Assembly: GCA_963743885.1 (NCBI GenBank)
Contig: CAVURJ010000002.1
Span: forward strand, 1 to 34,720
Origin: Candidatus Moraniibacteriota bacterium
Lineage (GTDB): Bacteria > Patescibacteriota > Minisyncoccia > Moranbacterales > UBA1568
Reading direction: 5' to 3'
Length of the DNA: 34,720 nt
Shown: in pieces, positions 1,586 to 28,828 of the stretch
Layout: every line of letters begins with the position of its first letter
Numbering within the stretch: the stretch's first letter is position 1
Position numbers and translations under genes: made by a program
The notes under the pieces: model-generated
The model's database searches: none
What the model saw: only the letters and a program-made list of their open reading frames with translations
What the model was told of the DNA's origin: nothing

Positions 1586-1599
1586 CAGGTCGGTGTCCG

Positions 1600-2352: not shown

Positions 2353-2410
2353 ACCCATTGCCCTGTGGATTGACGACGAGGCGTTCGCAACTTACGATGT
2401 CTGACCAGGA

Positions 2411-2994
2411 TCACTCGGTCTTCGGCTTGCCGGCGGCCTTCTTGGCCTTCTTCCAGGCCCGGACGTCGAGCAGGTCGGCCTCGGAGCCGATGTCGGCCAC
2501 GGAGCGGGGCTGGTCGTCGGCGAAGGGGCCGGCGACGGCCTCCCAGCCCTCGGGGGCCCGGCCGAAGCGCTTGCCGAGCAGGGCGATGAAGATCATCGAC
2601 TTCTCCTCGCCGAAGCCGGGCAGGGCGTTGACCCGCGCCGAGAGGTCCTGCGGCGTCGGCCGCCCCCTCCCACACGTCGGCGGCGTCGCCGTGGTGGTGC
2701 TCCACGAGGTGCTCGCACAGGGCGTGGGCCCGCTTGCCCATGGAGCCGGGGAAGCGGTGCAGGGCCGGCTTCCGGCTGAACAGCTCGGCCACCACGTCGG
2801 GGCCCATGGCGGCGATCTCGGCGGCGTCCAGGCGACCGCCGAGGCGCTCGCGGAGGCGGGCCGGGCCCCGGAAGGCCCACGCCATCGGCACCTGCTGGTC
2901 GAGCAGCATCCCCAGCATGCAGGGCCAGCGGATCGTCGATGAGGAGCTGGTCGTCCTCGGGGTTGCCGGTGATGGGGAAGGTCGGCTCGGCCAT
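2411..2994 (-). pseudogene. HhH-GPD-type base-excision-repair family protein, frame-disrupted
   Basis: The protein has to be assembled from three minus frames. [25 protein letters not shown] comes from the tail of ORF 2593..4356. [19 protein letters not shown]...[30 protein letters not shown] comes from ORF 2106..2918. The C-terminus [12 protein letters not shown]...AWKKAKKAAGKPKTE comes from ORF 2411..2596. Confidence 0.5.
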
Positions 2995-3022
2995 GGAATC
3001 GGAAGCTACCGCCCGCGGCGGC

Positions 3023-5761
3023 CTAGTGGGTCCACGGCGGGGCGCTCTCGGGGTCGAGGTCGTAGCGGGCGATGGCGTCGGCGACGACCGCCGGCGTCGA
3101 CGGCGCCGTCGGCGGCCAGGCCGGCGAGCACGGCCACCACGACGTGGGCGGCGTCGGTCTCGAAGAAGCGGCGCAGCGTCTCGCGGGTGTCGCTGCGGCC
3201 GAAGCCGTCGGTGCCGAGCGCAGGACCACGGCCGCGGGCGACCAGCGGGCGACCTGGTCGGGCACGGCCCGCATGAAGTCGGTGACGGCCACGACCGGGC
3301 CCGGCGCCCTCGGCCAGCCGCTCGGTGACCAGCGGCGTGCGGGGGTCGTCGGCCGGGTGGAGGCGGTTCCAGCGCTCGACGGCCAGGGCCTCCTCCCGGA
3401 GGCGCTTGTAGGAGGTGGCCGACCACAGGTCGACGCCGACGTCGTAGTGCTCGGCCAGCTCGGCCTGCGCGGCCCGGGCCGCGCCCTGGGCCGAGCCGGA
3501 GAAGAGCACGGTCGCCGGGTGCGTCGGGCCCTCGGGGGCCGCGGCGCAGCGGTAGAGGCCCTCGAGGATGCCGTCGTCGACGCCCTCGGGCTTCGGCGGC
3601 ATGGCGTAGTTCTCGTTGTAGACGGTCAGGTAGTAGAAGACGTCCTCGCCCGGCGGCGTCGCCGCCCGGGTACATGCGGTGGATGCCGTCCTGGACGATC
3701 GCCGCCATCTCGTAGGCGAAGGCCGGGTCGTAGGCCTCGCAGGCGGGCACGGTGGAGGCCAGCACGAGGCTGTGGCCGTCCTGGTGCTGGAGGCCCTCGC
3801 CCAGCAGGGTGGTGCGCCCGGCGGTGGCGCCCGAGCAGGAAGCCCCGGGCCCGGGCGTCGGCGGCGGCCCAGATGAGGTCGCCCACCCGCTGGAAGCCGA
3901 ACATCGAGTAGAAGATGAAGAAGGGCAGCATCGGCACGCCCCGGTTGGCGTAGGAGGTGGCCGCGGCGGTCCAGCTGGCCAGCGCGCCGGCCTCGGTGAT
4001 GCCCTCCTCGAGGATCTGGCCGTCCCGGTCCTCGGTGTAGGAGAGCAGCAGGGCGTGGTCGACCGGCTCGTAGAGCTGGCCGAGCGGGGCGTAGATCTCG
4101 AACTCCCGGAACAGGGAGTCCATGCCGAAGGTGCGGGCCTCGTCGGGGACGATCGGCACGACCCGGGGCCCGAGGCACTCGTCGCGGGCCAGGTTCCGCA
4201 GCAGGCGGGTGAAGGCCATGGTGGTGGAGGCCGCCTGCTTGCCGGAGCCGGCGGCGAACTCGTCGAAGACCGATGGCGGCGGGCAGCTTCAGCGGCCGCC
4301 GGTCGCGCACCACCCGGCTGGGCAGCGGCGCCGTCGAGGGCCTGGCGCCGCTCCATCAGGTAGCTGGTACTCGACGGAGTCCTCGGCCGGGCGGAAGTAC
4401 GGGGGGGCGCTCGGCGTCGAGGGCGTCCTCGGGGATCTCCTCGTGCAGGTGGAGGCGGTCCCGCAGCGCCTGCAGCTGCTCGTTGGTCATCTTCTTGATC
4501 TGGTGGGTGGCGTTGCGGCCCTCGACGCCGGGGCCGAGCGTCCAGCCCTTGACCGTCTTGGCCAGGATCACCGTGGGCGCCCCCGTCTGCTCGGTGGCGG
4601 CCTTGTAGGCGGCGTAGAGCTTGCGGTAGTCGTGGCCGCCGCGGGGCAGGTTGCGGAGGTCGTCGTCGGAGAGGTGGTCGACCAGGTCCGCGCAGGCGGG
4701 GGTCGGGGCCGAAGAAGTGCTCGCGGATGTAGGCGCCGTCCTCGACGGCGTAGCGCTGGAACTCGCCGTCGACGGTCGTCGTTCATCTTGTTGACGCAGC
4801 ACGCCGTCGACGTCCTGGGCCAGCAGCTCGTCCCAGCGGCGAGCCCCAGATGACCTTGATCACGTTCCAGCCCGCGCCCCGGAAGATGGCCTCGAGCTCC
4901 TGGATGATCTTGCCGTTGCCCCGCACCGGGCCGTCGAGGCGCTGGAGGTTGCAGTTGACGACCCAGGTGAGGTTGTCGAGGCCCTCGCGGGCGGCCAGGG
5001 AGATGGCGCCGAGGGTCTCGGGCTCGTCGACCTCGCCGTCGCCGACGAAGCACCACACCCGCGACGCCGCTGGTGTCGTCGATGCTGGCGGTTCTGGAGG
5101 TAGCGGTTGAACCGGGCCTGGTAGATGCGAGTTGATCGGGCCGAGGCCCATCGAGACCGTGGGGTACTCCCAGAAGTCCGGCATCGAGCCGGGGGTGCGG
5201 GTAGCTGGACAGGCCGCCGCCGCCGATCTCGCGGCGGAAGCGGTCGAGCTGGTCCTCGGTCAGGCGGCCCTCGAGGAAGGCCCGGGCGTAGATGCCGGGG
5301 GCGGCGTGGCCCTGGATGTAGACGGCGTCGCCGGACTGGCCGTCGTCCTTGCCCCGGAAGAAGTGGTTGAAGCCCGACCTCGTAGAGGGCGGCGGACGAG
5401 GCGAAGGTCGAGAGGTGGCCGCCGATGCCGTCGGCCTTCTTGTTGGCCCGGATCACCATGACCGCGGCGTTCCAGCGGATGAAGGCCCGGATGCGGCGCT
5501 CGATGTCCTCGTCGCCGGGGAACCAGGGCTCCTGTTCGGCCGGGATGGTGTTGATGTAGGGCGTCGAGACCGACGCCGGGGTGCCGACGCCGAGCTGGCG
5601 GGCGCGTTCGAGCAGCCTTGGACAGCAGGAAGCGGGCCCGGGCCTCGCCCTGGGCGCCCACCACCGCGTCCAGGGAGTCCAGCCACTCCTGGGTCTCCTG
5701 CGGGGTCGGTGTCGGGCAGCTGGTGCACGTACCCGTCGATGAAGGTCACATCTGTCACCAT
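3023..5761 (-). pseudogene. aceE: Pyruvate dehydrogenase E1 component (homodimeric AceE type), split across all three minus-strand frames about ten or more times
   Basis: Colinear AceE-like peptide blocks are scattered over ORFs 5453..5761 ([20 protein letters not shown]), 5260..5664, 4860..6287 ([33 protein letters not shown]), 4783..5184 ([18 protein letters not shown]; [51 protein letters not shown]), 4356..4802, 3626..4219, 2593..4356, 3006..4313 and 3023..3292 (C-terminal [13 protein letters not shown]). Confidence 0.8.
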
Positions 5762-6826
5762 GCCCCGGATGCCGACGATCGTCTACACCGATGGTGCCTG
5801 TTCGGGGAACCCCGGACCGGGGGGCTGGGCCTGGGTGGTCCCCGACGGCCCCTTCGCCAGCGGCGCCGATGCCCACACGACCAACCAGCGCATGGAGATC
5901 GAGGCCGCCACCGAGGCCCTCTACGCCATCGACGGGCCGGTGACCGTGGTCAGCGACTCCACCTACGTCGTGCACTGCTTCACCAAGAAGTGGTACGTGG
6001 GCTGGAAGGCCAAGGGCTGGAAGAACGCGCAAGAAGGAGGACGTGGCCAACCAGGACCTGTGGCGACCCCTGATCGACCACGTGCTGGAGCGGGACAACG
6101 TGACCTGGCAGTGGGTGAAGGGCCACAGCGGCGACGAGTGGAACGACGTGGCCGACCGTCTCGCCGTCGAGGCCGCGGCCACCCAGCAGGGGCGGTCGGG
6201 GGACCGGCCGCCCGAGGTGCTCGGGGTGGCCGACGCGGTCGGGCCTGGGGTCGTGGGCGCCGCCGGAGACCGAGGCGCCGTCGGCACCCGCCGCGAAGGG
6301 CCCGGCGGCGAACCGACCGACGGGTCACCTGGTGGCGGTGTTCGGCCACCGGCCCCCGGAGCTGGGGGGCTATGAGCCCAACTTCCTGCAGGCCGCGGTG
6401 CAACGCCGGCTGGGGGACATCCTCGATGCGCAGCGGATGCTCGACGAGGACCTGGTCCTGCTCACCGGCCTCCAGCTCGGCGCCGAGCAGCTGGCGGCCG
6501 AGGCCGCGGTCGACCGCGGCGTGCCCTTCGTCGTCGTCCAGCCCTTCCCGGACCCGGACAGCAAGTGGCCGTCGTCCAGCCGGGCGGCGTACCGGCAACT
6601 GCTCGACCAGGCCCGTGAGGTCGTGCTCCTCCAGAAGAAGGCCGTGCGCAGCCCGGGCGACGTCCGCCGGGCGATGGGCCAGCGGGACGCCTGGCTGACC
6701 CGGGCCGCGGATGCCGCCGTGGTCGTGTGGGACGGCAAGGACAGCCTCCTGGCCAAGCAGGTGAAGGCCCTGGAGCAGGAGGTCGGCGACGAGGTCTGGA
6801 TCGTCGACCCCGGGGAGCTGGCCTGA
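5760..6826 (+). pseudogene. rnhA: RNase HI fused to a C-terminal YpsA/DUF1273-like (SLOG superfamily) domain, with two frame breaks (about 6040 and 6330)
   Basis: The RNase H motifs [31 protein letters not shown] and VVSDSTYVV lie inside ORF 5349..6698. [20 protein letters not shown] lies in ORF 6043..6375. [14 protein letters not shown]...VVVWDG lies in ORF 6332..6826. Confidence 0.6.
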
Positions 6827-6859
6827 CCGAACCGTCCGGCCTGGTCGGCCGGCAGGGGG

Positions 6860-7352
6860 TCAGTGGAAGTGCAGGGCCCGCAGGGTGGCGTGGGCGGCGT
6901 TGATCTCCGCCATGCGGTTGCGGCCGATCTCCTGGGCGGTCGGCGAGTAGTCGACCAGCCGGTCGGGGTGGTACTGCTTGGCCAGTGTCCGGTGGGCCCG
7001 GGTGACGGCCTCCCAGTCGGCCCCGATGTCGACCTGCAGCACGAGGTGGGCCGAGTCGAGGTCCATGCCGCCCGGTACGTCGAGGTCGGCTTCGACCTTC
7101 TCCTCGACGGGGGGCGGCGGTGGGGGAGCCTGGTCCTCGAAGAGCGACTCGGCCGTCCAGTAGTCGGCGAACTGCGAGTCCGGGCGGCGGCGGGGGTGGG
7201 TCGTCCTCGTGCTGAGGACCCCGGGGGACGCCGGCCACCTCCTCACGGGCGGCCCACCAGGCGTGCTCGTCCTCGCTGAGGTCGGCGTGTCGGTCGTCGA
7301 GATCGTCCTCCGCGCGCCGGAAGAGGCGGCCCCGCCTCCCGGTGGTGGTCAT
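6860..7352 (-). pseudogene. J-domain (DnaJ-like) protein, one frame break near 7210
   Basis: The C-terminal J domain (AHRTLAKQYHPDRL) is in ORF 6860..7246. The N-terminus MTTTGRRGRLFRRAEDD...AWWAAREE is in the frame of ORF 6462..7805, starting at ATG 7352. Confidence 0.5.
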
Positions 7353-7407
7353 GAGTCCCTTATCGGCCGCCGGGACCCGGCCTTGACGACGGGTACATTC
7401 CGCACGG

Positions 7408-7806
7408 ATGCGGATCGGGTCGGACACCGGGGGCACCTTCACCGACCTGGTGGACGAGCGGGGCCGCGTGGCCAAGGTCCTCTCGACCCCGTCGGACCCC
7501 ACCGAGGCCGTCCGGGCGGGGATCGCCGAGCTCCGGGCCCGCCGCGTCGACCTGCTGGCCCACGGCACCACCGTGGCCACCAACGCCCTGCTCGAGGGGA
7601 CCCTGGCCGAGACCGCCCTGGTCACCACCACGGGCTTCGCCGACGTCATCGAGATCGCCCGCCAGGACCGTCCCCGCCTGTATGACCAGTGGGCCGACCG
7701 ACCGCCGCCCCTGGTCGAGCGTTCGCTGCGGCTCGAGGTGGACGGTCGGCTGGCTGCCTCCGGCGAGGAGATCGAGGCCGTCGGGGAGGTCCCCGAGATC
7801 CCCAAG
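7408..7806 (+). pseudogene. Hydantoinase/oxoprolinase (HyuA-type) N-terminal fragment, truncated at the composition break
   Basis: The sequence MRIGSDTGGTFTDLV...LAHGTTVATNALLEG is typical of this family. The GC-rich coding sequence stops abruptly at about 7805, and the ORF then runs into AT-rich repeat DNA. Confidence 0.6.
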
Positions 7807-7810
7807 AATC

Positions 7811-7912
7811 AGCACCAAGTTCCAATAAATCTCAAATACAAAATTTGAAACGTTTTGAAATTATTATTTTGATATTGTAATTTGTTTGGAAATTGAGATT
7901 TTGGATTTGTTA
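7811..7912. repeat. AT-rich palindromic intergenic repeat, copy a
   Basis: The left arm is agcaccaagttccaataaatctcaaat. The right arm tttggaaattgagattttggatttg (7885..7909) matches 24837..24861 and is the reverse complement of motifs at 23537.. and 28829... Confidence 0.7.
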
Positions 7913-7923
7913 TTTATTTTGTT

Positions 7924-8160
7924 ATGGGTGTAAAGCGAATCACAATTTGCCACAAACGTAACGATTGTATCGGCTGCGGATCATGTGCGATGATTTCGCC
8001 GGATCGTTTCGTGATGAGCGCTGCCGATGGAAAGGCTGATCTCCGGGATGGGCAGTGGCATGGAGAGGAATTTATGGTGGCCAAGATTGATGAGGATGAA
8101 TACGATTTGAATAAACAAGCCGCCGACGCCTGCCCGGTCGGGATTATTAGATTGGATTGA
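7924..8160 (+). CDS. Small single-cluster ferredoxin
   Basis: The 78-aa ORF has a CIGCGSC...ACP cysteine pattern and is followed by a terminator. Confidence 0.7.
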   Translation: MGVKRITICHKRNDCIGCGSCAMISPDRFVMSAADGKADLRDGQWHGEEFMVAKIDEDEYDLNKQAADACPVGIIRLD

Positions 8161-8184
8161 TACCGGAAAAATTCACCACAAAAC

Positions 8185-8210
8185 AAAAACGCCATCTGGG
8201 CGTTTTTTTA
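8185..8210 (+). terminator. Rho-independent terminator
   Basis: The hairpin aaaaacgcc-atctg-ggcgttttt is followed by a T run. Confidence 0.65.
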
Positions 8211-8324
8211 TTTTGGCTTTATACTGGAAGTGTAGTCAACAAAAATAAAAAATGGACAATAAGAAAATTCCTACCAGTATCGGAACTATCGTACTCGTCA
8301 TCATTGCCGTGACAGTTTTTTTGT

Positions 8325-9677
8325 TTGTGTGGGTGTACTGAAAAAGGACAAGAAAAAACTTTGTCACTAATAACAAATAATCTTCAAAAACAGCCAGTGC
8401 AGTCTTCTGCTCTTTGCAATGATCCTCAACAGAAGGCTGCTGATACAAAATCAGCAATAGCCCAAACAACGCAAACGCCAGACGAAGAATACATAAGCGA
8501 TACGCACGATATATCAGCAGAAAAGAAAGCTCTCAATAAAATCAACATTGATAAAGCGACTCCGGAATCACTCGTGGTCGATATTTATAACGCAATTTTT
8601 AAATCAAATAATAACATCAATACAACTATAGGACAGTATGATTGTGTTAATTGGAAAATTAAAGATGATATCAGTTTCGGTTTTGACGGATGGAGAATAT
8701 TGACTGTTCGCCCAAGTCTTTCAACCATAAACGATGACGTCGATATACTGAAAGATTTTTTTGTAAATAACGGCTTTTCAAAGAGTAAAAATAACACCAA
8801 TTCAAATCTAAAAGGAATGGATGGGCTCAGTATTCCTGGCGAAACATTTGGTTTTGAAAAAGATGACTTCAAATGCTCATTCGGATGGAGCGAGGCGACA
8901 TCTGATCCAAATCCTAAAAATTTAAAAAAGGATTATTTTAATCTCTCATGCGCCAAATACACGTCACAAGACCAAGAAACATTTCAGACATTTCTTGGAG
9001 TATTTGGAACCGGAACTACGAAATATTTTTGCGTCAAAAAACAAGATGGTAATTTTTCCAAAGGATTAATGTCGTGGGCAGCATGGTATGGGAAAAAAAT
9101 ACATGGCGATTGGAAAATTATTTGGAGTGGCCAAGATATCCCGCCATGTTCGGAAGTAACTGATTTCCCTCACGACATAGTAGACAGCTGTTATGATAAA
9201 GAAGATGGGGGAGAGAAGGTGTTTTCAGATGACAAATCAGACCCGATTATATATAAAGAAAGAACGTCCATATACACAAACAATGTACATGGATTTGAAT
9301 TCAAATATCCACAAGGACTTTCAGTTGCAAAGGGTTCGACCGACGATGTCCTTGGCTTGAGCGATAATTCAAGCGATCCATGGATAATTAAGGTCACTGT
9401 TTCTGAAAATACAGATGATCTTTCTCTCGAGCAGGCTTTCGGTGAGGAATTGGATAGATACCAAAAATCCGCACCGAAGAGTGTTATTATCAATACAGAT
9501 ACTCGTATTAATGGGAAACCAGCCAAAAAATTCTCAATTGTTAATTCTCACGATGATAGAAATGCCGCAGTAGTTTTTATTAATGGTAAAAATGTAATAA
9601 CAATATACGGCAATGATTCGACTATGTTTCTAAGAACAATTCTCGAAACCGTGCTTTATTCCTTTAAATCTATATAG
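8325..9677 (+). CDS. Secreted or membrane-anchored protein of unknown function; its N-terminal anchor (8252..8341) lies in a different frame
   Basis: This is a 450-aa ORF. Upstream, ATG 8252 encodes MDNKKIPTSIGTIVLVIIAVTVFLFVWVY followed by TGA, almost identical to the N-terminus of the next gene. It shares a YxxxxxGFEFKYPQ block with ORF 9805..10506. It is visibly more AT-rich than its neighbours. Confidence 0.6.
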   Translation: MCGCTEKGQEKTLSLITNNLQKQPVQSSALCNDPQQKAADTKSAIAQTTQTPDEEYISDTHDISAEKKALNKINIDKATPESLVVDIYNAIFKSNNNINTTIGQYDCVNWKIKDDISFGFDGWRILTVRPSLSTINDDVDILKDFFVNNGFSKSKNNTNSNLKGMDGLSIPGETFGFEKDDFKCSFGWSEATSDPNPKNLKKDYFNLSCAKYTSQDQETFQTFLGVFGTGTTKYFCVKKQDGNFSKGLMSWAAWYGKKIHGDWKIIWSGQDIPPCSEVTDFPHDIVDSCYDKEDGGEKVFSDDKSDPIIYKERTSIYTNNVHGFEFKYPQGLSVAKGSTDDVLGLSDNSSDPWIIKVTVSENTDDLSLEQAFGEELDRYQKSAPKSVIINTDTRINGKPAKKFSIVNSHDDRNAAVVFINGKNVITIYGNDSTMFLRTILETVLYSFKSI

Positions 9678-9804
9678 GCCCTAGCTTCATTCTAGGGTCT
9701 CAGCTAATATCTTAAAAGAAACATCGATCAAGATGCTTCTTTTATTTTTACTGACTTTTGAGTATACTAAACAGTATAAATAGAAGGATAAAAATAAAAA
9801 TCGT

Positions 9805-10506
9805 ATGGATAACAAAAAAATCCCGACTTGTCTCGGAACAGCTATTCTCGTCGTCATGGCCATCACGGCGGGAGCTTTTGTGTGGGTGTACGAACAGAAT
9901 CAGGGGGCAATAGAAACAGACACAATTATCCAAACAACTATTAAGAAAGATCAGAAAACTGATACCGGAAAGGAAACAGTGGCGAATACCCCGCAACAAT
10001 TCCCCGAAATGGATCCGGCTGAAAAAGCCCGTCTTGCAGCCCTGACCAAAGACTGGCAAACGTATCGGGATACGGAGTATGGGTATGAATTTAAATACCC
10101 ACAAAATTATTTTGTTGTAAACAAAAAAGGAACATCTTCCCCAGAGACCCTCACTATAACTAGCAATAAAGGGTATCCAGGAGATGGCGGCTGCCCCAAA
10201 CCTCCTTGTAATTTCCCAACACATCCACACGAAATTACTATCACAGTATTCGAAGAGCCAAACAATTTCTCCTTAACCGAAATCAAAAAGAGGCTCGAAG
10301 GCAATTACGTGACTATGGGGTCCGAGAAATATATACTTATTAATGGTAAATCAGCATTATATTATAGAAGTTATCAATATTCAGATGCTATATATATAGT
10401 TGGATATAAAAAAACATATTTTATATCATCTGACCTAGAGTGGATTGAGACCTATTTTAGCGATACATTCAAAGGAATTTATTCAACGTTCAAAGAGATT
10501 GATTAA
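9805..10506 (+). CDS. Membrane-anchored extracytoplasmic protein, paralog of the upstream gene
   Basis: It has the MDNKKIPTCLGTAILVVMAITAGAFVWVY signal anchor and a YGYEFKYPQNYF block. Confidence 0.65.
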   Translation: MDNKKIPTCLGTAILVVMAITAGAFVWVYEQNQGAIETDTIIQTTIKKDQKTDTGKETVANTPQQFPEMDPAEKARLAALTKDWQTYRDTEYGYEFKYPQNYFVVNKKGTSSPETLTITSNKGYPGDGGCPKPPCNFPTHPHEITITVFEEPNNFSLTEIKKRLEGNYVTMGSEKYILINGKSALYYRSYQYSDAIYIVGYKKTYFISSDLEWIETYFSDTFKGIYSTFKEID

Positions 10507-10620: not shown

Positions 10621-12249
10621 TTACTGGATCGGACCGACGTACTCGAACTTCACAGCATCGGCAGCGATTACTTTTCCTGTCTCACCAGTATTTCCTTGGA
10701 GAGATACGGAAGTACTGCCAGCATAGAGGTTGTAAGTGCCGATGCTGACCCAACTGTCCTGACTACTGCTTTGATCTACCGACTGAGCTGTGTAGTTCGT
10801 GCCATTGCTGCTCACGGTATATGCCGCCGATTGGCTGCTCGCATATTCGTCTGGTACATACACCTGAACTTTGTATTGTCCATCTCTGGGCAGATTGGGT
10901 GTCCAGGTTACCGTCCCTGCGACGTTGGCTTCCTTGCTGTAGATGATACCGCTATAGCCGAGCTCATAACCACCAGGATCATAGGTCGCCCCCTGTCTCG
11001 CCCAGTTCCCGATCGTACTCGACGGACTGGAACATCCCGGAGTCGTACCGCTCAGTTGGAACGCGCCGTTGCACTCATACGGATGCACAACGATGGTAAA
11101 CGTCGTCGATTGATCTGAATACAGGCCGTTTGCAATGAGCTCGGACGGGTCAGTGAAATTACCAAGCGCGCTCCAACTGTACGGATCCTGACTACGATAA
11201 CTAGTAGCCAGATTTCCGTCCGTCAGGATTGCGAAGTGAAGATGACATGCATTCGAATAATACCCGTTGCCATCACCCACTTGCCCGACCGGATTACCCT
11301 TCATAATCGGCTCGTCGACATCTTGCTGGATATCCTTCTCCGCAATGTATCCCGTCTGCGACGAATTGAGCATGTGCCCATAGAGCGAATACACCGTAGA
11401 GAGCAGTTGCCCGGTACCGGTCAGGAAGTATTTCCCTTGCGGCGCATCGTGCTGGATGAGGATAGTTCTGCCCCACGCATCGTTGATGGACGTTTTGTCT
11501 CGTACTGTTCCACTGGCAATCGCGAAGAGCGGCTCACCGGAATCGTCGCAGGTTCCACCCTTGTTCCAGTCTTCCGCAGCGTGTGGTACGCTGTCATAGT
11601 TATTCAACGACCCGAAGCTCTGTTTCTTCTTCGTCCAGCCGTTGGGATTTTCCGGAGTGAATGCAAGCGGAAACCGCGTGTAGCTTCCAACGAGGATATC
11701 CCCCGCCGAAAGGCTCGGCAATCCGAACTGCCCATCCCAGTTGTAACCGAAGTTGACCTTAATATCGATGCCAACCGCCCTAACCAGGTCGTTCTGGAGA
11801 TCGTACCCAGTCGGGCCAGCGTAGGTCCAGTCGAACCAGGTATATGACCGGAAGCGGCTCTGGTTTATCGAGACCGGATTGCCCCAGGTATCGTTTTCGC
11901 ATTTGCCATCCTGATTCTCGTAGCAGCTGTAGATGATGACATTCGGATTGTAGTCAAAGCTGTCGAACGCCTGGCTTTGGGAAAGCGGATTGAGCAGGAT
12001 CCAGAGGTGCTGGTAGGGAGGACCCTGGTTGTAGTCGACGGCGACCGGCTTCAGGCTTTCAGGGATGTTTTCCGGATAGTAGACGGTGTAGTTCTGGTGG
12101 TACCACGGATGCCTCGTCTGGACGAAGGCGTCGTAGGTGACGCCGTTCTCCGTGAACGGGATCGGTTTCGGAGGAGGCAGCCGGCTCCAATCGAAAGCAT
12201 TGGCGAGGCCGGAACAGAGGAGGCAGAGGATCAAGATGAACGTTCTCAT
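10621..12249 (-). CDS. Secreted M23 (LytM-type) metallopeptidase with an extra C-terminal beta-rich, possibly carbohydrate-binding, domain
   Basis: The signal peptide is MRTFILILCLLCSGLANA, after an AAGGAG RBS at ATG 12249. M23 motifs present are HAAEDW, GTVRD...WGRTILIQH, YSLYGHM and HLHFAI. The C-terminal QYKVQVYVP...DQSSSQDSWVSIGTY...AADAVKF resembles golvesin-C-like modules (recalled, not searched). Confidence 0.75.
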   Translation of the reverse strand: MRTFILILCLLCSGLANAFDWSRLPPPKPIPFTENGVTYDAFVQTRHPWYHQNYTVYYPENIPESLKPVAVDYNQGPPYQHLWILLNPLSQSQAFDSFDYNPNVIIYSCYENQDGKCENDTWGNPVSINQSRFRSYTWFDWTYAGPTGYDLQNDLVRAVGIDIKVNFGYNWDGQFGLPSLSAGDILVGSYTRFPLAFTPENPNGWTKKKQSFGSLNNYDSVPHAAEDWNKGGTCDDSGEPLFAIASGTVRDKTSINDAWGRTILIQHDAPQGKYFLTGTGQLLSTVYSLYGHMLNSSQTGYIAEKDIQQDVDEPIMKGNPVGQVGDGNGYYSNACHLHFAILTDGNLATSYRSQDPYSWSALGNFTDPSELIANGLYSDQSTTFTIVVHPYECNGAFQLSGTTPGCSSPSSTIGNWARQGATYDPGGYELGYSGIIYSKEANVAGTVTWTPNLPRDGQYKVQVYVPDEYASSQSAAYTVSSNGTNYTAQSVDQSSSQDSWVSIGTYNLYAGSTSVSLQGNTGETGKVIAADAVKFEYVGPIQ

Positions 12250-12464: not shown

Positions 12465-13523
12465 ATGATTATGCAGCCGTATTTGGGATTCTGGGGAGAA
12501 TTGAAGAAACCGTTTTTTGTCCTAGCGCCAATGGCCAATGTCACGGACGCTCCTTTTCGTCGTGTCATTGCGAAGTATGGCAAACCTGATGTGACGTGGA
12601 CGGAGTTCGTCTCAGCGGACGGACTGTGTCATCCTGTTGGGCGGGAGGCACTCCTTCGTGACCTTATGTACACCGAAGGCGAGCGACCGGTCGTGACGCA
12701 GCTCTTTACGGCACATCCCGAGAAGATGTTCGAAGCAGCGAAATTCGTGGCAACACTCGGGTTCGATGGGATCGATATCAATATGGGTTGCCCGGACAAG
12801 AATGTCATGAAGCAGGGCGCCGGCGCGACGCTTATGAAGGATCCGAAGTTGGCGCAAGCGATCATTCGGGCGGCACAGGAAGGTGTGAAGGCATCCGGTA
12901 GGGAGATTCCGATCTCGGTGAAGACGCGGCTCGGGTATAACGAAGACACTCTGGAAGAGTGGTTACCGGCCTTGCTTGAGATGCAGCCGGCCGTGATCAC
13001 GGTGCATGCTCGGACGAAGAAGGAGATGTCCAAGGTGCCGGCGAGATGGGAACGCGTGAAGCGGGCGGTAGAGATCGCGCGCGGTTCGGGGACGCTTATT
13101 ATCGGTAACGGCGATGTGCGAGATCTCGCGGATGCTGAAGCGAAGGTCCGTGAGACTGGCTGCGATGGTGTGATGCTTGGACGAGCTGTGTTCGGCAATC
13201 CGTGGCTGTTTGCCGATGTGGCCCGCGCTCGTCGTGGTAGCGATAATGACGGTGCGGGATGGACTCAGGTGACGGTGCAAGAGAGACTAGAAGCAGCAGT
13301 CGAACATACGAAACTCTTTGAGGAAACCTGGAAAGATACCAAGAGCTTCGAGCTCATGAAGAAGCATTATCAGGCGTATGTGAATCATTTCCCGCTGGCC
13401 AAAGAGCTCCGTATCGAACTCATGAACTGTCATGATGCGGAGTCGGTAGAAGGGATAGTCATGTCGTTTTTGGAGAAACATGCTGATATAGCGGCCGAAA
13501 CGGTCGTGCACGGCGAACATTGA
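12465..13523 (+). CDS. dus: tRNA-dihydrouridine synthase
   Basis: Dus-family motifs are present: FVLAPMANVTDAPFRRV, GFDGIDINMGCP, ISVKTRLG, ITVHARTK and GNGDV. Confidence 0.85.
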   Translation: MIMQPYLGFWGELKKPFFVLAPMANVTDAPFRRVIAKYGKPDVTWTEFVSADGLCHPVGREALLRDLMYTEGERPVVTQLFTAHPEKMFEAAKFVATLGFDGIDINMGCPDKNVMKQGAGATLMKDPKLAQAIIRAAQEGVKASGREIPISVKTRLGYNEDTLEEWLPALLEMQPAVITVHARTKKEMSKVPARWERVKRAVEIARGSGTLIIGNGDVRDLADAEAKVRETGCDGVMLGRAVFGNPWLFADVARARRGSDNDGAGWTQVTVQERLEAAVEHTKLFEETWKDTKSFELMKKHYQAYVNHFPLAKELRIELMNCHDAESVEGIVMSFLEKHADIAAETVVHGEH

Positions 13524-14475: not shown

Positions 14476-14605
14476 GGCACAATGGTTTAAGGTGATTGGG
14501 CACTCAGAGTCGTTTTTTTTGTGAAGGTTTCATATATGCATACGGAACAACGGTCGTGGTGAAGTGTGCAGAGCAAATCGATGTGTATAAGTTTTACTAC
14601 CGGGT

Positions 14606-15898
14606 ATGAAAATAGCGGTTTTGGTATCGGGTGGGGTGGATAGTTCGGTGGCGCTCCGGCTTCTTCAGGAAGAGGGGCACGAACTGCACGCCTTTTACCT
14701 CAAAATTTGGCTAGAAGACGAGCTGTCCTTTTTGGGCGAATGCCCTTGGGAGGATGATTTGTCGTACGTGCGCGCGGTCTGCGAAGAGGCGGGGGTGCCG
14801 CTCACGGTGGTGCCGTTCCAGAAAGAATACTGGGAGCGCGTCGTGAGCTATACGATCGACGAAGTGAAGCATGGGCGGACGCCTAATCCGGATATGCTTT
14901 GCAATGCGCGGATCAAGTTCGGCGCGTTTCTGGATTTTCTTCACTCAGGTCATTCTGATCCGCCAGTTGGCGGAGAAGAATCTATGTCGAACGATATACA
15001 TAATGAGATTCCTCGACAAGCTCGGAATGACAGCTTCCTTTTCGATAAGGTAGCGACTGGGCATTATGCACAGGTTGAGAATTTATATCAAGGACGGTCC
15101 TTGATAACGTCAAGGACCGTCCTTGATATAGCGGTGGGTGTATCGAAGGAACGCTCTGCTTTGCCTAGCGCTTTCCGACTCAAGATGTCTCCTGATCCGA
15201 TCAAGGATCAGACGTATTTCCTCTCGCAGCTTTCGCAGGCACAGGTAGCGAAGGCACTTTTTCCAATCGGGAAGTATGAGAAGCACGAAGTGCGTGCTTT
15301 GGCGGAGAAGTTCGCTTTGCCGAATGCCAAGCGCAAGGATAGTCAGGGTATCTGTTTCCTTGGCAAGATCCCGTTTGATAAGTTTTTGGAATTTCATCTT
15401 GGCAAGCGGCCGGGCAAGTTGATTGAATATGAGACTGGTACAGTGATGGGCGAGCACGACGGCTTTTTCTACTATACGGTCGGGCAGCGTCGTGGCATCC
15501 GGCTTTCGGGTGGCCCATGGTATGTGGTGGCCAAAAACCCAGAGATGAATGAAGTCTTTATTTCTCATGGCGAGCATCATGAGCTCTTGGCGAAGGATAT
15601 CTTCATTGTCGGGGGATTGAACTGGATTTCTGGTAATTCACCCCTCAGTCTCGCGGACTCGACAGCTCCCCTTGGAAAGAGGAGCAGGAAAAGAGAGGAA
15701 TGGGGGAATAAGAAGATGAATGTGATGGTCAAGATTCGCCATGGTGCCAAGATGTATAAGGCGACGATCGAGTCTTTGGAGGGTGATAGATTGAAAGTGA
15801 CACTTAAAGAAAAAGACCCAGGGCTCGCCGCGGGCCAGTTTGCTGTTTTTTACAATGGAGAGTATTGCTTAGGAGGAGGAACAATATTAGAAAGTTAA
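14606..15898 (+). CDS. mnmA: tRNA-specific 2-thiouridylase MnmA carrying three in-frame repeat insertions
   Basis: MnmA motifs are present: MKIAVLVSGGVDSSV, NPDMLCN, ATGHYA, KDQTYFL, KDSQGICFLG and AAGQFAVFYNGEYCLGGG. At 430 aa it is longer than the roughly 360-370 aa I recall as typical. Confidence 0.9.
   Translation: MKIAVLVSGGVDSSVALRLLQEEGHELHAFYLKIWLEDELSFLGECPWEDDLSYVRAVCEEAGVPLTVVPFQKEYWERVVSYTIDEVKHGRTPNPDMLCNARIKFGAFLDFLHSGHSDPPVGGEESMSNDIHNEIPRQARNDSFLFDKVATGHYAQVENLYQGRSLITSRTVLDIAVGVSKERSALPSAFRLKMSPDPIKDQTYFLSQLSQAQVAKALFPIGKYEKHEVRALAEKFALPNAKRKDSQGICFLGKIPFDKFLEFHLGKRPGKLIEYETGTVMGEHDGFFYYTVGQRRGIRLSGGPWYVVAKNPEMNEVFISHGEHHELLAKDIFIVGGLNWISGNSPLSLADSTAPLGKRSRKREEWGNKKMNVMVKIRHGAKMYKATIESLEGDRLKVTLKEKDPGLAAGQFAVFYNGEYCLGGGTILES
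14949..15031. repeat. MITE-like element with terminal inverted repeats GTCATTCTGA / TCGGAATGAC, in frame inside mnmA
   Basis: The element reads gtcattctgatccgccagttggcggagaagaatc ... gagattcctcgacaagctcggaatgac. It translates as SGHSDPPVGGEE...EIPRQARND, and in another frame as FLDKLGMT. It accounts for an insertion of about 28 aa relative to E. coli MnmA as I recall it. Confidence 0.65.
15084..15130. repeat. 47-nt double palindrome inside mnmA
   Basis: The sequence is tatatcaaggacGgtccttgata-acg-tcaaggacCgtccttgatata. It forms two adjacent perfect 10-bp-stem hairpins, and the whole is nearly palindromic. Confidence 0.8.
15641..15706. repeat. In-frame hairpin repeat (CCCCTCAGTCTCGCGGACTCGACAGCTCCCCTTGG...), mnmA copy
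   Basis: It shares a core of about 40 nt with 17236.. (mutY) and 31705.. (argS). Confidence 0.8.
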
Positions 15899-16672: not shown

Positions 16673-17914
16673 ATGAAAATCATGAATCGTAAATCTCTGC
16701 CTCGTCGGCAGACAGGGAAAATCATAAATCATCCCAGACACATGAAGATTTCTGCGAAATCAATCAGCTTTTTTGAGGAGAAAATAACTGATTTCTTTAG
16801 GAAGGCTGGGCGGGAGCATCTGCCATGGCGGAAGAAGCGTATCTCGGCCTATGAGGTGTGGGTCTCGGAGATTATGCTTCAGCAGACGCAGGTCGTACGC
16901 GTCATCGGCTATTATGAGCGATTCCTCAAGAGATTTCCGACCATCGAAGCGCTCGCTAGCGCGACATGGGAAGCATTCTTGCCATACTATGAAGGCTTGG
17001 GGTATTACAACCGCGGGCGCAATATGCTCAAGGCCGCAAAGGAGGTGACAACGAAGCATCAAGGAAGATTCCCTCGGGATGCCGAAGCCCTGCGAAGGCT
17101 CCCAGGTATCGGACCGTATACGGCGGCAGCCATCATGAGTTTCGCGTATGGCGATGACCATCTGGCTTGGGATACGAATCTTCATCGTGTTATCGGGCGG
17201 TTCTTCTATGGGACGAAGAGTGCGTTTTTTTCGAACCCTTCAGTCTCGACGACTCGACAGCTCCCCTTGGACCCGCTTCGACGGAGCGAAAGCGAGGCGA
17301 GAAAGGGGAGCCGGAAGAGGGAGGGAGGGATGACAAATAATAGCGAAGCGTTCTGGGAAGACAAGTTTGTGACGCCGAAAAAGTCGATGAACGCGGCGCT
17401 CATGGATTTCGGCAGTGCCCTCTGCGTCGCGCGTCCGAAGTGCGAAGCGTGCTCTTTGCGGCAGCGCTGTGCTTTTTATAGGGACGGCGGGAAGCTAGAA
17501 GCGGTAGAAAAGAACAAACGACGTATATCGTATCCTGTATCTCGTATAACGGGAAACGGAAATCGCGGAGGAATCCGACATACGACATACGACATACGAC
17601 ATACGGATATCGATTGGAGAGAAGCGAAAGCGGTTGTTTTCCTGCATGAGAATCATAAGAAATATTTTTCATCGGTTAAGAAAGAATACAAGCCGTTTGT
17701 GTTGCCGTCCGGATATAATACGCGGGCCGGCATCAAGAAGTATTTTCTCGAAAAATACGGACTCCAGCTCGCGGTCCGCCCGCCGCATGAGAAAAAGCTC
17801 ATTAAGGGCCAGTCGATGCTTTTCGTGAACGCGCAGATTTTGCTTGGCACCCCGTCATTTTCCGTATTTCCGAAAAATGTCGTCGAGGGGTATAATGAAA
17901 GCATGAAAAGCTAA
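16673..17914 (+). CDS. mutY: A/G-specific adenine DNA glycosylase (MutY family) with in-frame repeat insertions
   Basis: MutY motifs are present: YEVWVSEIMLQQTQV, GLGYYNRGRNM, LPGIGPYTAAAI and the Fe-S loop CVARPKCEACSLRQRC. An alternative start is possible at ATG 16742. Confidence 0.8.
   Translation: MKIMNRKSLPRRQTGKIINHPRHMKISAKSISFFEEKITDFFRKAGREHLPWRKKRISAYEVWVSEIMLQQTQVVRVIGYYERFLKRFPTIEALASATWEAFLPYYEGLGYYNRGRNMLKAAKEVTTKHQGRFPRDAEALRRLPGIGPYTAAAIMSFAYGDDHLAWDTNLHRVIGRFFYGTKSAFFSNPSVSTTRQLPLDPLRRSESEARKGSRKREGGMTNNSEAFWEDKFVTPKKSMNAALMDFGSALCVARPKCEACSLRQRCAFYRDGGKLEAVEKNKRRISYPVSRITGNGNRGGIRHTTYDIRHTDIDWREAKAVVFLHENHKKYFSSVKKEYKPFVLPSGYNTRAGIKKYFLEKYGLQLAVRPPHEKKLIKGQSMLFVNAQILLGTPSFSVFPKNVVEGYNESMKS
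17236..17329. repeat. In-frame hairpin repeat, mutY copy (long-loop variant)
   Basis: The sequence is cccttcagtctcgacgactcgacagctccccttgg...aaaggggagccggaagagggagggaggg. It accounts for roughly 30 extra residues compared with E. coli MutY as I recall it. Confidence 0.8.
17577..17604. repeat. Tandem heptanucleotide repeat (GACATAC)x4 inside mutY
   Basis: Read directly from the sequence: gacatac gacatac gacatac gacatac. Confidence 0.9.
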
Positions 17915-23517: not shown

Positions 23518-23536
23518 AGATGTTTCACATCAACAG

Positions 23537-23672
23537 AAATCCAAAATCAAAAATCCCAATTTCCAAATAAATCACAAATCCAAACAACAAAACTCGAAAC
23601 GGACCAGTGTCTATCTCATTTTTTGATATTTGTTATTTTAGATTTATTTGGAGCTTGTAATTTTGAATTTTT
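23537..23672. repeat. AT-rich palindromic intergenic repeat, copy b (left flank of the GH gene)
   Basis: The sequence aaatccaaaatcaaaaatcccaatttccaaataaatcacaaatccaaa...tttatttggagcttgtaattttgaatttt is the reverse complement of copy c over nearly its whole length. Confidence 0.8.
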
Positions 23673-23690
23673 TATTTTAGAAACTTGCTT

Positions 23691-24728
23691 ATGCGTTATC
23701 TCCGGTATGCTCTGAAGGGGATTGGTCTCGTTCTCCTCGCGCTCCTTATTGTCATCCTTCTCCTGTTCGCGTATTTCAATCTGCCCGGCCCGGATCCGCG
23801 CGAGGACGTGCAGCTCGGCATGACCTTCTCGCATCGCTATGCGAGTGGTCTTGGGCTTGATTGGAAAGAGACATATCTCGCGCTCCTTGACGAGGTTGGC
23901 GTTCGCAAGCTCCGTATCCCAGTGTATTGGGATCTTGTCGAGAAGGAGCCGAAGTCGTATGATTGGTCGGATATTGATTGGCAGCTCGCGGAGGCTGAGA
24001 AGCGCGATGCCGAAGTGATCCTCTCAATCGGGCTCAAGGTGCCGCGTTGGCCGGAATGTCATATTCCGGGCTGGGTCGGCGATGATACTGATACTCGCCA
24101 TGGTGCGCTCCTTCGCTTTATGATGAAGGCAGTCGAGCGGTATAAGGGTCATCCGTCAGTAGTTGTCTGGCAGGTTGAGAATGAGCCATTTTTGCCATTC
24201 GGCATCTGCCCGCCGTTTGATGCGGACTTCCTCGATCAGGAGGTGGCGTTTGTAAAGGCGCTTGATCCGTCGCGGCCGGTGCTGCTTACGGATAGCGGCG
24301 AGCTTTCGCTCTGGGTTGCGCCGGCGTCGCGCGGAGACATGTTTGGTACGACGCTGTATCGCGATATCTATAGCAAGAATGTCGGTGGTTATTTCACGTA
24401 TCCGATCGGTCCGAATTTTTTCCGAGCTAAGGAACAGCTGGTCCGGCTCTTGACTGACCAAGAAGACTTTTCGGTCATCGAACTCCAGGGCGAGCCGTGG
24501 GCGAGCGGATGGATAGCGGAGATACCGCTTGAGGAGCAGTTCCGGACTATGACGGAAGACAAGCTGCGTGAGAATGTCGAGTATGCTCGTCGGGTCGGCT
24601 TTCGGGATATTTATCTTTGGGGCGGTGAGTGGTGGTATTGGATGAAGGTCAAGAAGGACTATCCGGCGGTATGGGAGACAGGGAAGGAGCTTTTCCGCGA
24701 GCAAGGCCGGGTAGTAGGTAGTGAATAA
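23691..24728 (+). CDS. Membrane-anchored clan GH-A (TIM-barrel, GH5/GH42-like) glycoside hydrolase
   Basis: It has an N-terminal TM segment, WQVENEPF (acid/base NEP) and IELQGEPW (candidate nucleophile). Confidence 0.65.
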   Translation: MRYLRYALKGIGLVLLALLIVILLLFAYFNLPGPDPREDVQLGMTFSHRYASGLGLDWKETYLALLDEVGVRKLRIPVYWDLVEKEPKSYDWSDIDWQLAEAEKRDAEVILSIGLKVPRWPECHIPGWVGDDTDTRHGALLRFMMKAVERYKGHPSVVVWQVENEPFLPFGICPPFDADFLDQEVAFVKALDPSRPVLLTDSGELSLWVAPASRGDMFGTTLYRDIYSKNVGGYFTYPIGPNFFRAKEQLVRLLTDQEDFSVIELQGEPWASGWIAEIPLEEQFRTMTEDKLRENVEYARRVGFRDIYLWGGEWWYWMKVKKDYPAVWETGKELFREQGRVVGSE

Positions 24729-24866
24729 ATTCAAAATTCAAAATTACAAGCTCCAAATAAATCAAAAATAAAAAATATCAAAAATAAGACAGATAGCGGT
24801 CGTTTTTTGGTTTTGTTTTTTTGGATTTGTAATTTATTTGGAAATTGAGATTTTGAATTTGGTGCT
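24729..24866. repeat. AT-rich palindromic intergenic repeat, copy c (right flank of the GH gene, inverted relative to b)
   Basis: The sequence is attcaaaattcaaaattacaagctccaaataaatc...ggatttgtaatttatttggaaattgagattttgaatttggtgct. Confidence 0.8.
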
Positions 24867-24874
24867 TCTGTAAT

Positions 24875-26213: not shown

Positions 26214-26338
26214 CCCGGTAGTAGAACTTCAAAGACATATAGGAAGTTTGAGGCTGGAGGGAAATGGGTATATGGTGTATAAGAACCAACCAAAGAACAA
26301 GAATCAGTTAAGATAACATTTGAAGTTTCACTACCGGG
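26214..26338. repeat. Long-range inverted repeat (20-nt arms, about 85-nt spacer)
   Basis: The arm cccggtagtagaacttcaaa (26214-26233) is inverted relative to tttgaagtttcactaccggg (26319-26338). Confidence 0.75.
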
Positions 26339-26339
26339 T

Positions 26340-26453
26340 ATGGATCTGAACAAATTTTTCGATAATTTCCTCAAGAAGACGCTGTGGATCTGGCTGCCGT
26401 TCTATGCGTTTTTCCGCCTGATCCGTGAGGCTGGCGAGAAGATCGGAAAGTAG
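26340..26453 (+). CDS. Possible 37-aa small membrane protein
   Basis: The ORF is ATG..TAG and encodes MDLNKFFDNFLKKTLWIWLPFYAFFRLIREAGEKIGK, with a hydrophobic core. It ends 6 nt before the vanZ-like gene. It is too short to appear in the ORF track. Confidence 0.3.
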   Translation: MDLNKFFDNFLKKTLWIWLPFYAFFRLIREAGEKIGK

Positions 26454-28335: not shown

Positions 28336-28346
28336 ATTCGTATCGA

Positions 28347-28744
28347 TGTGGAGTTGATGGGAATCGCACCCATGTCCAGAGAAGTTTTTCCAAAATAGTC
28401 TACAAGCTTAGTGTCGCTTGGTGTGAAAAGGAAGGGTAGAAGCGGACGAAATCCCTTGCTAGTCGGTTCTTCTGCAACAGTGGTCGGAAATGAAGAAGAG
28501 GAAGATTCCCGGGCCGTCTCGATAGTATGACACCGGAGGACCCGTATCGAGAATAGGGGGTCCGATGGCTCAGGCGATTAAGCGAGAGCAGGGGCGAAAG
28601 ACGGAGCAAACGCTTGCGCGAATGCGTTCTTGGCCTTAGTGATGAAGTTTGCAGTTATCATCGTGGGAACGAGTTTTACGATCATGTTCCCGAGATCGGC
28701 TTGCGTATTTTGAAAGTACAACCTGTCGAATCTAGACAACCCCC
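28347..28744 (-). ncRNA. ssrA: tmRNA (SsrA)
   Basis: The minus strand begins GGGGGTTGTCTAGATTCGACAGG. It contains CTAAGCTTGTAGAC and ends GGACATGGGTGCGATTCCCATCAACTCCACA. The acceptor pairing GGGGTTG/CAACTCC includes G3:U70. The tag ORF GCA AAC ... GCT TAA (28652..28578) encodes ANFITKAKNAFAQAFAPSFAPALA. The gene lies directly downstream of smpB. Confidence 0.88.
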
Positions 28745-28828
28745 GCCCGTGACGCTTCGTAGAAGGGTCGCGGGCGGCAGTGGTCTAATGGTTTTTTGAG
28801 GTACGCTTCTGAAAAACGGCGGGAATGA

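Follow-up and report, generated by a model that had tools for sequence, protein, structure and literature searches.

How does a palindromic DNA repeat come to lie, in frame, within the gene of a tRNA-modifying enzyme? The question is raised by a stretch of 34,720 nt from a Candidatus Moraniibacteriota bacterium (contig CAVURJ010000002.1, positions 1 to 34,720 of the forward strand), here called the window, in which mnmA, the gene for tRNA 2-thiouridine(34) synthase, carries a small element made of two inverted hairpin modules. A preliminary description of this DNA had taken the element for a MITE-like insertion (MITE, miniature inverted-repeat transposable element) of 84 bp that belonged to a widespread and poorly characterised repeat class. 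Our comparison of the element, its host gene and its relatives in other genomes makes it very probable that we are dealing with a different kind of repeat: a head-to-head heterodimer of hairpins of the repetitive extragenic palindromic (REP) type, which would be a non-autonomous small mobile element resembling the REP doublets forming hairpins (REPINs) and would belong to the CGTC/TGTC-tagged REP superfamily. The features on which the argument rests are these.

14606..15898, plus strand: mnmA, tRNA 2-thiouridine(34) synthase, an open reading frame (ORF) of 430 aa and host gene of the element
14942..15031, plus strand: MnmA insertion site 1, 90 nt, aa 113-142, HSGHSDPPVGGEESMSNDIHNEIPRQARND, absent from empty-site orthologues
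14949..15031, plus strand: the 83-nt element, a probable head-to-head (tags outward) heterodimer of two REP-type hairpin modules; 14948-15032 with the flanking tag bases included
14947..14984, plus strand: left module, with (G)GTC tag, stem ATTCT/AGAAT, tandem G·A/A·G, inner hairpin TCCGCC-AGTT-GGCGGA and tail CTA
14985..15004, plus strand: spacer between the modules, about 20 nt
15005..15033, minus strand: right module, with TGTC tag, stem ATTCC/GGAAT, G·A/A·G, loop GCTTGTC and tail CTC

A palindromic insert in the reading frame of mnmA

The identity of the host gene is well supported. Top database relatives of the ORF are named MnmA proteins of Candidatus Moranbacteria or Moraniibacteriota, MnmA chains from the Protein Data Bank match it at E=2e-71 with an alignment interrupted at three places, and alignment with homologues shows no variation in the PP-loop or in either of the catalytic Cys columns. 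Its surroundings (Dus, hypothetical, mnmA, HhH-GPD, AI-2E transporter, Lgt ... SpoU, HAD) follow a gene order common to related contigs. The protein measures 430 aa, against 350-352 aa in insert-free Moranbacteria orthologues. As had been proposed, the element lies in frame between the FLDF and ATGHY blocks (more exactly, between FLDFL and FDKVATGHY), and the ORF stays open throughout.

The sequence of the element is as first quoted, its length being 83 nt and not 84. The left module reads GTCATTCTGA-TCCGCC-AGTT-GGCGGA-GAAGAATCT, and the right module reads GAGATTCCTCGACAAGCTCGGAATGAC on the plus strand and GTCATTCCGA-GCTTGTC-GAGGAATCTC on the minus strand. Terminal inverted repeats are indeed present, GTCATTCTGA and TCGGAATGAC being complementary at 9 of 10 positions; the inner arms, GAAGAATCT and AGATTCCTC, are complementary too, and either module is able to fold on itself. 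The tag is TGTC on the right module (15029-15032, minus strand) and a GGTC variant on the left, the flanks read ..CTCAG before and AGCTT after the element, and two forward reading frames are open across it. Folding of the 101-nt region was more stable than that of dinucleotide shuffles, both as RNA (-30.7 kcal/mol, z=-2.8) and as DNA (z=-2.45). The terminal 10-mer by itself showed no enrichment, the window having 6 matches at up to 1 mismatch where 5.2 were expected; the significance of the element must therefore rest on comparison with a family.

For that comparison, a covariance model (R1) was built from 46 modules, all from other, unrelated genomes, and then run on the window. It recognised the right module at 15005-15033 on the minus strand with 44.2 bits (E=7.2e-10) and the left module at 14947-14984 on the plus strand with 24 bits (E=1.8e-4), so that the model matches both of the inverted hairpin modules noticed at first. 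Over the rest of the 34.7-kb window no other match was better than E=1. The two places once thought to hold related motifs, 28818-28830 and 33172-33250, did not bear this out, with no R1 match at E<=10; the former amounts at best to half a module, 12 nt long, that lacks a partner arm. Further copies were found in relatives and in other genomes, but none within the window.

Orthologous genes support the view that the DNA at site 1 is a dispersed palindromic repeat that was inserted into mnmA and is not an ancestral segment of the gene, because close relatives show either empty sites or different inserts at this position. The empty-site orthologue L004 reads FYDAFGKDFDK, while the window MnmA reads FLDFL-HSGHSDPPVGGEESMSNDIHNEIPRQARND-SFLFDKVATGHY and thus has 30 extra residues there, where about 28 had been estimated. 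This surplus of 90 nt over the empty site consists of the 83-nt element and 7 nt more. When the element was deleted in silico, the joined flanks aligned without a gap to the empty orthologues L004 and L005. At site 1 the relatives P0005, P0014, P0015 (81% identity), P0019 and P0024 (80%) read FYDAFGKDFDKVATGHY. Empty sites are present among MnmA orthologues, and homologous residues and DNA at site 1 were not seen in distant lineages.

In the protein, the insert is predicted to form a disordered loop of some 30 residues at the surface of MnmA, the rest of which is intact. An AlphaFold2 model computed from an alignment of 28 sequences gave a predicted local distance difference test score (pLDDT) below 50 over the three inserts (residues 117-142, 164-186 and 351-366) and also in two short stretches, 247-254 and 290-297. 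The remainder of the model matches the crystal structures 2DEU and 2HMA with a target template-modelling score (TM) of 0.84-0.86.

The empty target sites themselves resemble the GCTTGTC loop or the tag of the module (L004 10340-10360; L005 about 11720-11740; window 15041-15052). In mnmA the codons for FDK are TTCGACAAGG, where the module has CTCGACAAGC, and the empty site in the HhH-GPD gene reads AGCTTGTCGC. This likeness could be due to chance, or it could hint at homology-guided insertion.

Distribution and architecture of the repeat family

A pattern drawn from the copies in relatives was searched among species-representative genomes, with taxa taken as labelled in the sequence records; it returned at least 120 stretches, and the figures for the family rest on the matches listed. 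The dimer architecture was found in at least 12 phyla. The groups include Verrucomicrobiota (many Udaeobacter), Chloroflexota, Bacillota, Bdellovibrionota, Alpha-, Beta- and Gammaproteobacteria, Bacteroidota with the cultured Adhaeribacter aquaticus DSM 16391, Acidobacteriota, Planctomycetota, Lentisphaerota, Kiritimatiellia, Spirochaetota and five Patescibacteria lineages. The left-module type of the window (GTCATYCTGATCCGCC..GGCGGAGAAGRAT) recurs in at least 120 metagenome stretches, and the string GATTCCTCGACAAGCTCGGAATGAC of the right module also occurs in Bdellovibrionales, Thermomicrobiales, Verrucomicrobia, Adhaeribacter and others. The same dimer pattern had no match in viral contigs and so gave no sign of carriage by phages. 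The repeat class is thus widespread, as had been suspected, and lies mostly in intergenic DNA, but it is not poorly characterised, for it matches the CGTC/TGTC-tagged REP superfamily (PMC3733652).

The consensus of the dimer, with junctions marked by a slash, is (Y)T/GTCATCCTGAGCGAAGTCGAAGGATC(YC) - spacer - (GR)GATTCCTCGACTTCGCTCGGAATGAC/A(R). Spacers are kept within lineages (Udaeobacter-type, Dehalococcoidia-type) and differ between them, and no spacer similar to the one of about 20 nt in the window was seen among the copies fetched. The arrangement of the window, with tags pointing outward, dominates the family, with 106 pairs against at most 5 of any other close arrangement among the matches listed; a scan of neighbouring pairs showed that single modules occur too. 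Module composition was counted on 62 dimers from the metagenome loci L127-L246. Heterodimers, in which the two stems differ by one base pair, made up 54 of the 62 and homodimers the other 8. A left ATTCT stem is usually paired with a right ATCCT stem, and the reverse (43/62), a rule that leaves one T·G or C·A position when the dimer is folded as one long hairpin. An intrinsic polarity of the dimer, with a CTGA-type left and a CCGAGC-type right module, was also considered and was rejected, the search pattern having imposed it in the genome scan; the count of heterodimers is free of this bias.

Selection maintains the pairing of the hairpins across the family by means of compensatory changes. 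Among the family modules in the matches listed, stem position 6 pairs as UA in 157 cases and as CG in 116, with 5 mismatches, and position 8 as UA in 160 and CG in 119, with 1 mismatch. In the 46-sequence alignment 99.6% of cells are paired, a value reached by none of 500 shuffles, and the AT...AT start of the stem is invariant in 46/46 aligned modules as well as in both modules of the window. The stem has 5 Watson-Crick pairs, a tandem G·A/A·G, 1-2 further pairs and a GNA-type loop; the left module of the window differs, with an inner stem of 6 bp and a loop of 4 nt. In the window the tails read CTA and CTC, and across the family C[C/T]N, CCA among them. Over 100 dimers the base preceding GTC is T in 64%, C in 17% and G in 12%, and the junction flanks across the family read YT/GTCAT..ATGAC/AR, which corresponds to a T/CGTC tag.

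The most frequent loop of the module is GCGNAG(T)C. Oligonucleotides of the d(GCGAAGC) type form very stable DNA mini-hairpins, and the resemblance hints that the single-stranded DNA form of the element matters. Lengths of the dimers are spread almost evenly over the three residues modulo 3 (45/33/28), and 90 of the 106 lie outside long open frames, mostly in intergenic DNA; the element is therefore basically non-coding. When Rfam was searched with the window at the gathering threshold, only transfer-messenger RNA (tmRNA) was returned; an E-value search of 14850-15200 gave nothing relevant, and in eighteen dimer-holding loci no family lay over the dimers. One Rfam match, to Acido-Lenti-1 (L030 3612-3656, 37.5 bits), lies on a Verrucomicrobia contig at 1 kb from a dimer. 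It is a different short hairpin repeat, whose translation would give 'PQGVALGWYISP..'-type peptides, and is unrelated to the GTCAT family.

Insertion sites, mobility and other repeats of the window

Copies of the dimer in relatives and the other two inserts of the window MnmA are listed here, with loci of other genomes under their own numbers.

15083..15175, plus strand: MnmA insertion site 2, aa about 160-190, an insert of another type (pLDDT <50 at 164-186)
15639..15692, plus strand: MnmA insertion site 3, aa about 345-366, LSLADSTAPLGK.., a 54-nt repeat of family D2 (pLDDT <50 at 351-366)
L001 5161-5233: dimer of 73 nt in mnmA, at another loop (site 2)
L002 12353-12425: dimer of 73 nt, in frame, in the gene of a HhH-GPD glycosylase; the site is empty in L005 and L001
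L002 7109-7207: dimer in intergenic DNA

All three sites are occupied in the window mnmA, each by an insert of a different repeat family. At site 2 lies a perfect 21-nt inverted repeat (15084-15104/15110-15130, 100% complementary, 5-nt loop; TATATCAAGGACGGTCCTTGA / TCAAGGACCGTCCTTGATATA), which is built of two copies of a self-complementary 19-mer and through which the frame is open; this palindrome had no copy in any of 246 loci. The D2 repeat at site 3 (CACCCCTCAGTCTCGCGGAYTCGACAGCTCCCCT..GGAGCAGGAAAA) has three copies in the window, all within ORFs (15639-15692, 17234-17287 and 31703-31756). The copy in the HhH-GPD gene is 69% and that in argS, between the N-terminal and catalytic domains, 91% identical, and the 15-nt core of D2 had no exact match in the 246 loci.

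In a census of the 120 closest MnmA homologues, in which inserts of at least 6 aa were counted, site 1 was occupied in 30/120, site 2 in 21/120 and site 3 in 10/120. The insert peptides are many and unrelated to each other (..PER..VEGYD.., CHSRAGGNP, TPPQSSPWKWEE, CHPERSEGS..RDSSTTLGMT, VIPAQAGIQ and LSLEDSTAPLG, the last at site 3 of P0010 and P0117), and most of them are recognisable translations of hairpin repeats from several families. Near-identical proteins that differ in the insert alone (P0012 and P0018; P0098 and P0103) point to fast turnover. Other genes carry such repeats as well. In five Udaeobacter-type Verrucomicrobia (L006, L034, L035, L098 and L125) a GTCAT dimer lies in frame within the essential GTPase Obg, where the peptide ..PVILSEVEGSR..RDSSTSLGMT.. 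interrupts the GTP1/OBG domain; the insert is missing from an Acidobacteria Obg, and both the dimer and its lineage-type spacer are conserved over the five species-level genomes. A glycosyltransferase gene in a contig labelled Moraniibacteriota holds a dimer in the opposite orientation.

Such recurrence could be read in another way, namely that the loop is a lineage-specific functional part of MnmA, for instance in binding a partner or tRNA, with the palindromic DNA incidental, or that a repeat was exapted and is selected as protein. The frame is kept, three MnmA loops are repeatedly occupied in Moranbacteria, and in Obg the insert is conserved in five species representatives of the Verrucomicrobia. 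However, intergenic repeats almost identical to this DNA occur in unrelated phyla, close relatives have wholly different inserts at one and the same site while many relatives have none, the protein cluster with the window insert has a single member, and the structural model predicts disorder. We consider a functional loop very unlikely.

A second question is whether the insert appears in the protein at all, or whether the element is skipped by programmed translational bypass or removed from the mRNA, with its hairpins as the signal. The 'byp' elements of yeast mitochondria are a case of programmed bypass, and the strong RNA structure and a length that is not a multiple of three would suit such a process. 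Against it, every genic copy examined is free of stops in the host frame (the three inserts of the window, L001, L002, the five Obg copies and L104), and the surplus over the empty-site orthologue amounts to whole codons, with 90 nt in the window, 75 nt in L001 and 81 nt in L002, which neither bypass nor excision would require. No Rfam intron or ribozyme matched. Given these open frames and whole-codon differences, skipping or excision is very improbable, and simple read-through of the insert, for which no function need be supposed, would explain the observations.

We then considered mobility. A classical MITE, that is, a deletion derivative of an insertion sequence (IS) with terminal inverted repeats, moved by a DDE transposase with target-site duplication, would agree with the 10-nt terminal inverted repeats, the small size, the AT-richer middle and the many dispersed copies. 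Yet the lengths of direct repeats at the junctions of 100 copies equalled the shuffled expectation, so that no target-site duplication was detected; the terminal repeats are themselves self-folding hairpins with covarying stems, the two ends are systematically non-identical, as expected of heterodimers, single modules exist, and no IS-like ORF recurs in the flanks. With no target-site duplication and no related transposase recurring in about 1 Mb of flanks, the label MITE-like does not hold in its classical sense, and an origin of this kind is very unlikely.

Several points weigh against a REP-type mobile dimer as well. The covariance model found no second family copy in the 34.7-kb window, which is part of a 500-kb contig, and no transposase was found in the window. 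Near the copies no transposase recurred either: all-against-all clustering of 3516 ORFs from 120 loci brought out only housekeeping families. A phmmer search for a REP-associated tyrosine transposase (RAYT) with E. coli RayT gave nothing credible in about 1 Mb of flanks, apart from one match at chance level, and no RAYT-like ORF was present in the window or in 8-kb pieces of other genomes. Head-out module pairs enclosing a gene-sized gap (60-3000 nt) were absent from about 1 Mb, no IS database having been searched. As 83 is not divisible by three, the surplus of 90 nt needs 7 further bases of unexplained origin. Translation of the insert is read from the open frame, and mobilisation as single-stranded DNA by an HUH enzyme is argued from analogy and from the absence of target-site duplication. 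Finally, the stems are interrupted by G·A pairs, unlike the published stems of 8-9 bp, and the assignment is therefore made at superfamily level only.

With these points counted, the REP-type dimer remains the explanation that we regard as very probable, and the following course of events is proposed. The module plan is an unpaired (Y)GTC tag, a 5-bp stem starting A-T, T-A, a tandem G·A/A·G, a small inner hairpin and a C-rich 3-nt tail. Two such modules, as a dimer, would have landed in a permissive loop of MnmA, between the helix after the catalytic Cys and the ATGHY strand, or have replaced an older repeat there. The insertion presumably survived because, with the 7 junction bases, exactly 30 codons were added and no stop. 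In a compact genome with little intergenic space, selfish DNA filtered by purifying selection would leave behind those insertions that are in frame, free of stops and located in loops. Mobilisation would probably proceed as single-stranded DNA hairpins by an enzyme acting in trans, of the HUH/Y1 type (RAYT/IS200-like) or otherwise specific for hairpins, and an occupied site may change its insert through recombination or conversion among the copies of the repeats. Conservation of the modules across phyla and the mini-hairpin of the GCGNAGC type point to recognition as single-stranded DNA.

A broader version, which we regard as tentative and on balance rather doubtful, is that all (Y)GTC-AT dimers form one pan-bacterial family, moved by a single conserved enzyme that is specific for single-stranded DNA hairpins or is a universal host enzyme, and that copies in the candidate phyla radiation survive mainly in surface loops of housekeeping enzymes, turning over by nested insertion or conversion. 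Under this version, near-identity of the 26-nt terminal modules over at least 12 phyla, beside lineage-specific spacers, would speak for a single conserved enzyme. If it were true, these copies would be a main source of protein length variation, at the three sites of MnmA and in HhH-GPD, ArgRS, Dus and Obg.

These observations bear on how proteins of such genomes are read. Odd peptides such as ..CHPERSEGS.., ..RDSSxxLGMT.., ..RQARND.. and VILSEAKDL in hypothetical proteins and enzymes can be traced to a repeat class that is described and little used. Orthologue lengths in Moranbacteria (MnmA, 350-430 aa) vary through repeats at a few permissive loops, which matters for the calling of orthologues, for the prediction of structures and for judging how far such genomes are 'streamlined'. 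The question becomes a sharper one, namely what moves the CGTC-type REPs, for which the published account names no transposase (PMC3733652).

Further repeats and unusual regions were noted in the window. The HhH-GPD glycosylase (16673-17914) has 413 aa compared with 333 aa in L005 and carries two inserts: one, at the site of the L002 GTCAT dimer, ends ..GGGATGACAA and looks like a decayed right end, and the second reads ..IRHTTYDIRHT... Dus (12465-13523) has a 13-aa insert. The hairpin repeat at 33172-33250, in the intergenic DNA downstream of argS, is a different one. Comparison by eye shows the 15-mer TTGTCGAAGGGTACG both there and in the insert, of the ..PER..VEGYD.. type, that the closest relatives carry at site 1 of mnmA, so this older insert family has an intergenic copy in the window. 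A 20-nt direct repeat, AAGTTTYACTACCGGGTATG, occurs at 14589-14608 and 26323-26342 (95% identical), one copy running into the start codon of mnmA and the other lying upstream of a VanZ-like gene; the two copies may represent a leader or ribosome-binding-site motif that both genes have in common. AT-rich intergenic repeats (..AAATTCAAAATT..CCAAATAAAT..) are found at 23533-23683, 24724-24871 and 28823-28938. They contain inverted repeats of 58-67 nt (93% and 79% complementary), flank a glycosyl-hydrolase-like gene (23685-24728) and recur upstream of the tmRNA gene.

28346-28743, minus strand: tmRNA gene, tag peptide ANFITKAKNAFAQAFAPSFAPALA

Base composition is uneven over 1-10500, with 62-75% GC over 1-8000, about 38% over 8000-10500, and about 50-55% in the remainder, which is syntenic with Moranbacteria. 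The GC-rich part (1-8000) holds pieces of a pyruvate-dehydrogenase-E1/transketolase-like gene in two frames and an RNase H domain, and Pfam gave no match to the ORFs of the AT-rich part (8000-10500). Positions 1-10500 could be a chimeric assembly or foreign DNA.

Relation to known repeat systems

Palindromic repeats in frame within genes are already known from Rickettsia. The Rickettsia palindromic elements, RPE-1 to RPE-8, were reportedly described by Ogata and colleagues in 2000 and 2002 as a peculiarity of that genus, and RPE-1 is said to be about 100-150 nt, longer than the mnmA element and unrelated to it in sequence. The likeness lies in a palindromic repeat that stands in frame within a housekeeping gene, tolerated in a loop, in a small compact genome; the difference lies in the Moranbacteria host and in one gene with three inserts from three repeat families. 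The phenomenon thus extends beyond Rickettsia to Patescibacteria and Verrucomicrobia. A literature search with 12-mer strings returned unrelated primers only. No report of such repeats in this group was found, and none among the matches listed combined REP with the candidate phyla radiation. We found no earlier report of the Moranbacteria host or of the three-site pattern in MnmA, and present these, together with the Verrucomicrobia Obg dimer, as new.

Bacterial MITEs that lie within genes, such as the QMITEs of Coxiella burnetii (PMC5896051; reviews PMC10969869, PMC2229807), are likewise small and non-autonomous, can lie within ORFs and add residues. Unlike the present element, QMITEs are terminal-inverted-repeat elements tied to IS families and not tagged REP hairpin dimers. 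REPINs, which are associated with RAYT transposases (Bertels & Rainey 2011, PMC3116915; Ton-Hoang et al. 2012, as cited in PMC3733652), come closer. In both systems two inverted REP hairpins with a spacer form one unit, the 5' tetranucleotide tag is unpaired, target-site duplication is absent, and the unit can fold as one long hairpin or as two. The tag here, in contrast, is (Y)GTC followed by AT and not GTAG (GTRG), no RAYT flanked by modules was found in the loci examined, and the modules are nearly the same across phyla, where REPIN sequences are lineage-specific. Because the tag differs and no RAYT was found in these loci, the element is not a GTAG REPIN.

The closest counterpart is the CGTC-tagged REP superfamily of Di Nocera, De Gregorio & Rocco (2013, BMC Genomics 14:522, PMC3733652), which includes RPE-6 (CGTC-1) and RPE-4 (CGTC-4) of R. 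conorii and dRS3 of Neisseria. These repeats are described there as having an unpaired CGTC tag (TGTC in many repeats, with CCTC as a variant), a stem of 8-9 bp starting A-T, T-A, a loop of 4-5 nt and an unpaired 3-nt tail with the consensus CCA. They are mostly head-to-head dimers, often heterodimers, with conserved spacers of 20-100 nt, occur in five phyla and have no associated transposase; bulged or unusual members may have escaped the survey. Intragenic copies in frame are catalogued (R. conorii RPE-6 and RPE-4), with dimers encoding 20-30 aa, and the R. conorii peptides include VIPAKAGI, CHSRRSGNP, DSRFCRND and SFPRKRES (PMC3733652).

Set beside that account, the mnmA element and its family differ in having a 5-bp stem with tandem G·A/A·G and a mini-hairpin (GCGNAG(T)C or longer) instead of an uninterrupted 8-9-bp stem with a 4-5-nt loop, and in their hosts, since the five phyla listed for CGTC in that survey include neither Patescibacteria/Moranbacteria nor most of the 12 or more found here. 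They agree with it in the tag, in the A-T/T-A start of the stem, in the head-to-head heterodimers (a term that we equate with the tag-outward arrangement), in the spacer of about 20 nt in the window, in the spread over several phyla, in the intragenic copies in frame and in the lack of a transposase. The tails have 3 nt in both; those of the window are CTA and CTC, and the published consensus is CCA, which occurs among the C[C/T]N tails of the family. At the peptide level, GHSD..RQARND in the window and CHSRAGGNP and VIPAQAGIQ in relatives recall the R. conorii peptides. Judged by the published description, the element fits a variant module type of the CGTC/TGTC-tagged REP superfamily, a placement that applies to the superfamily level.

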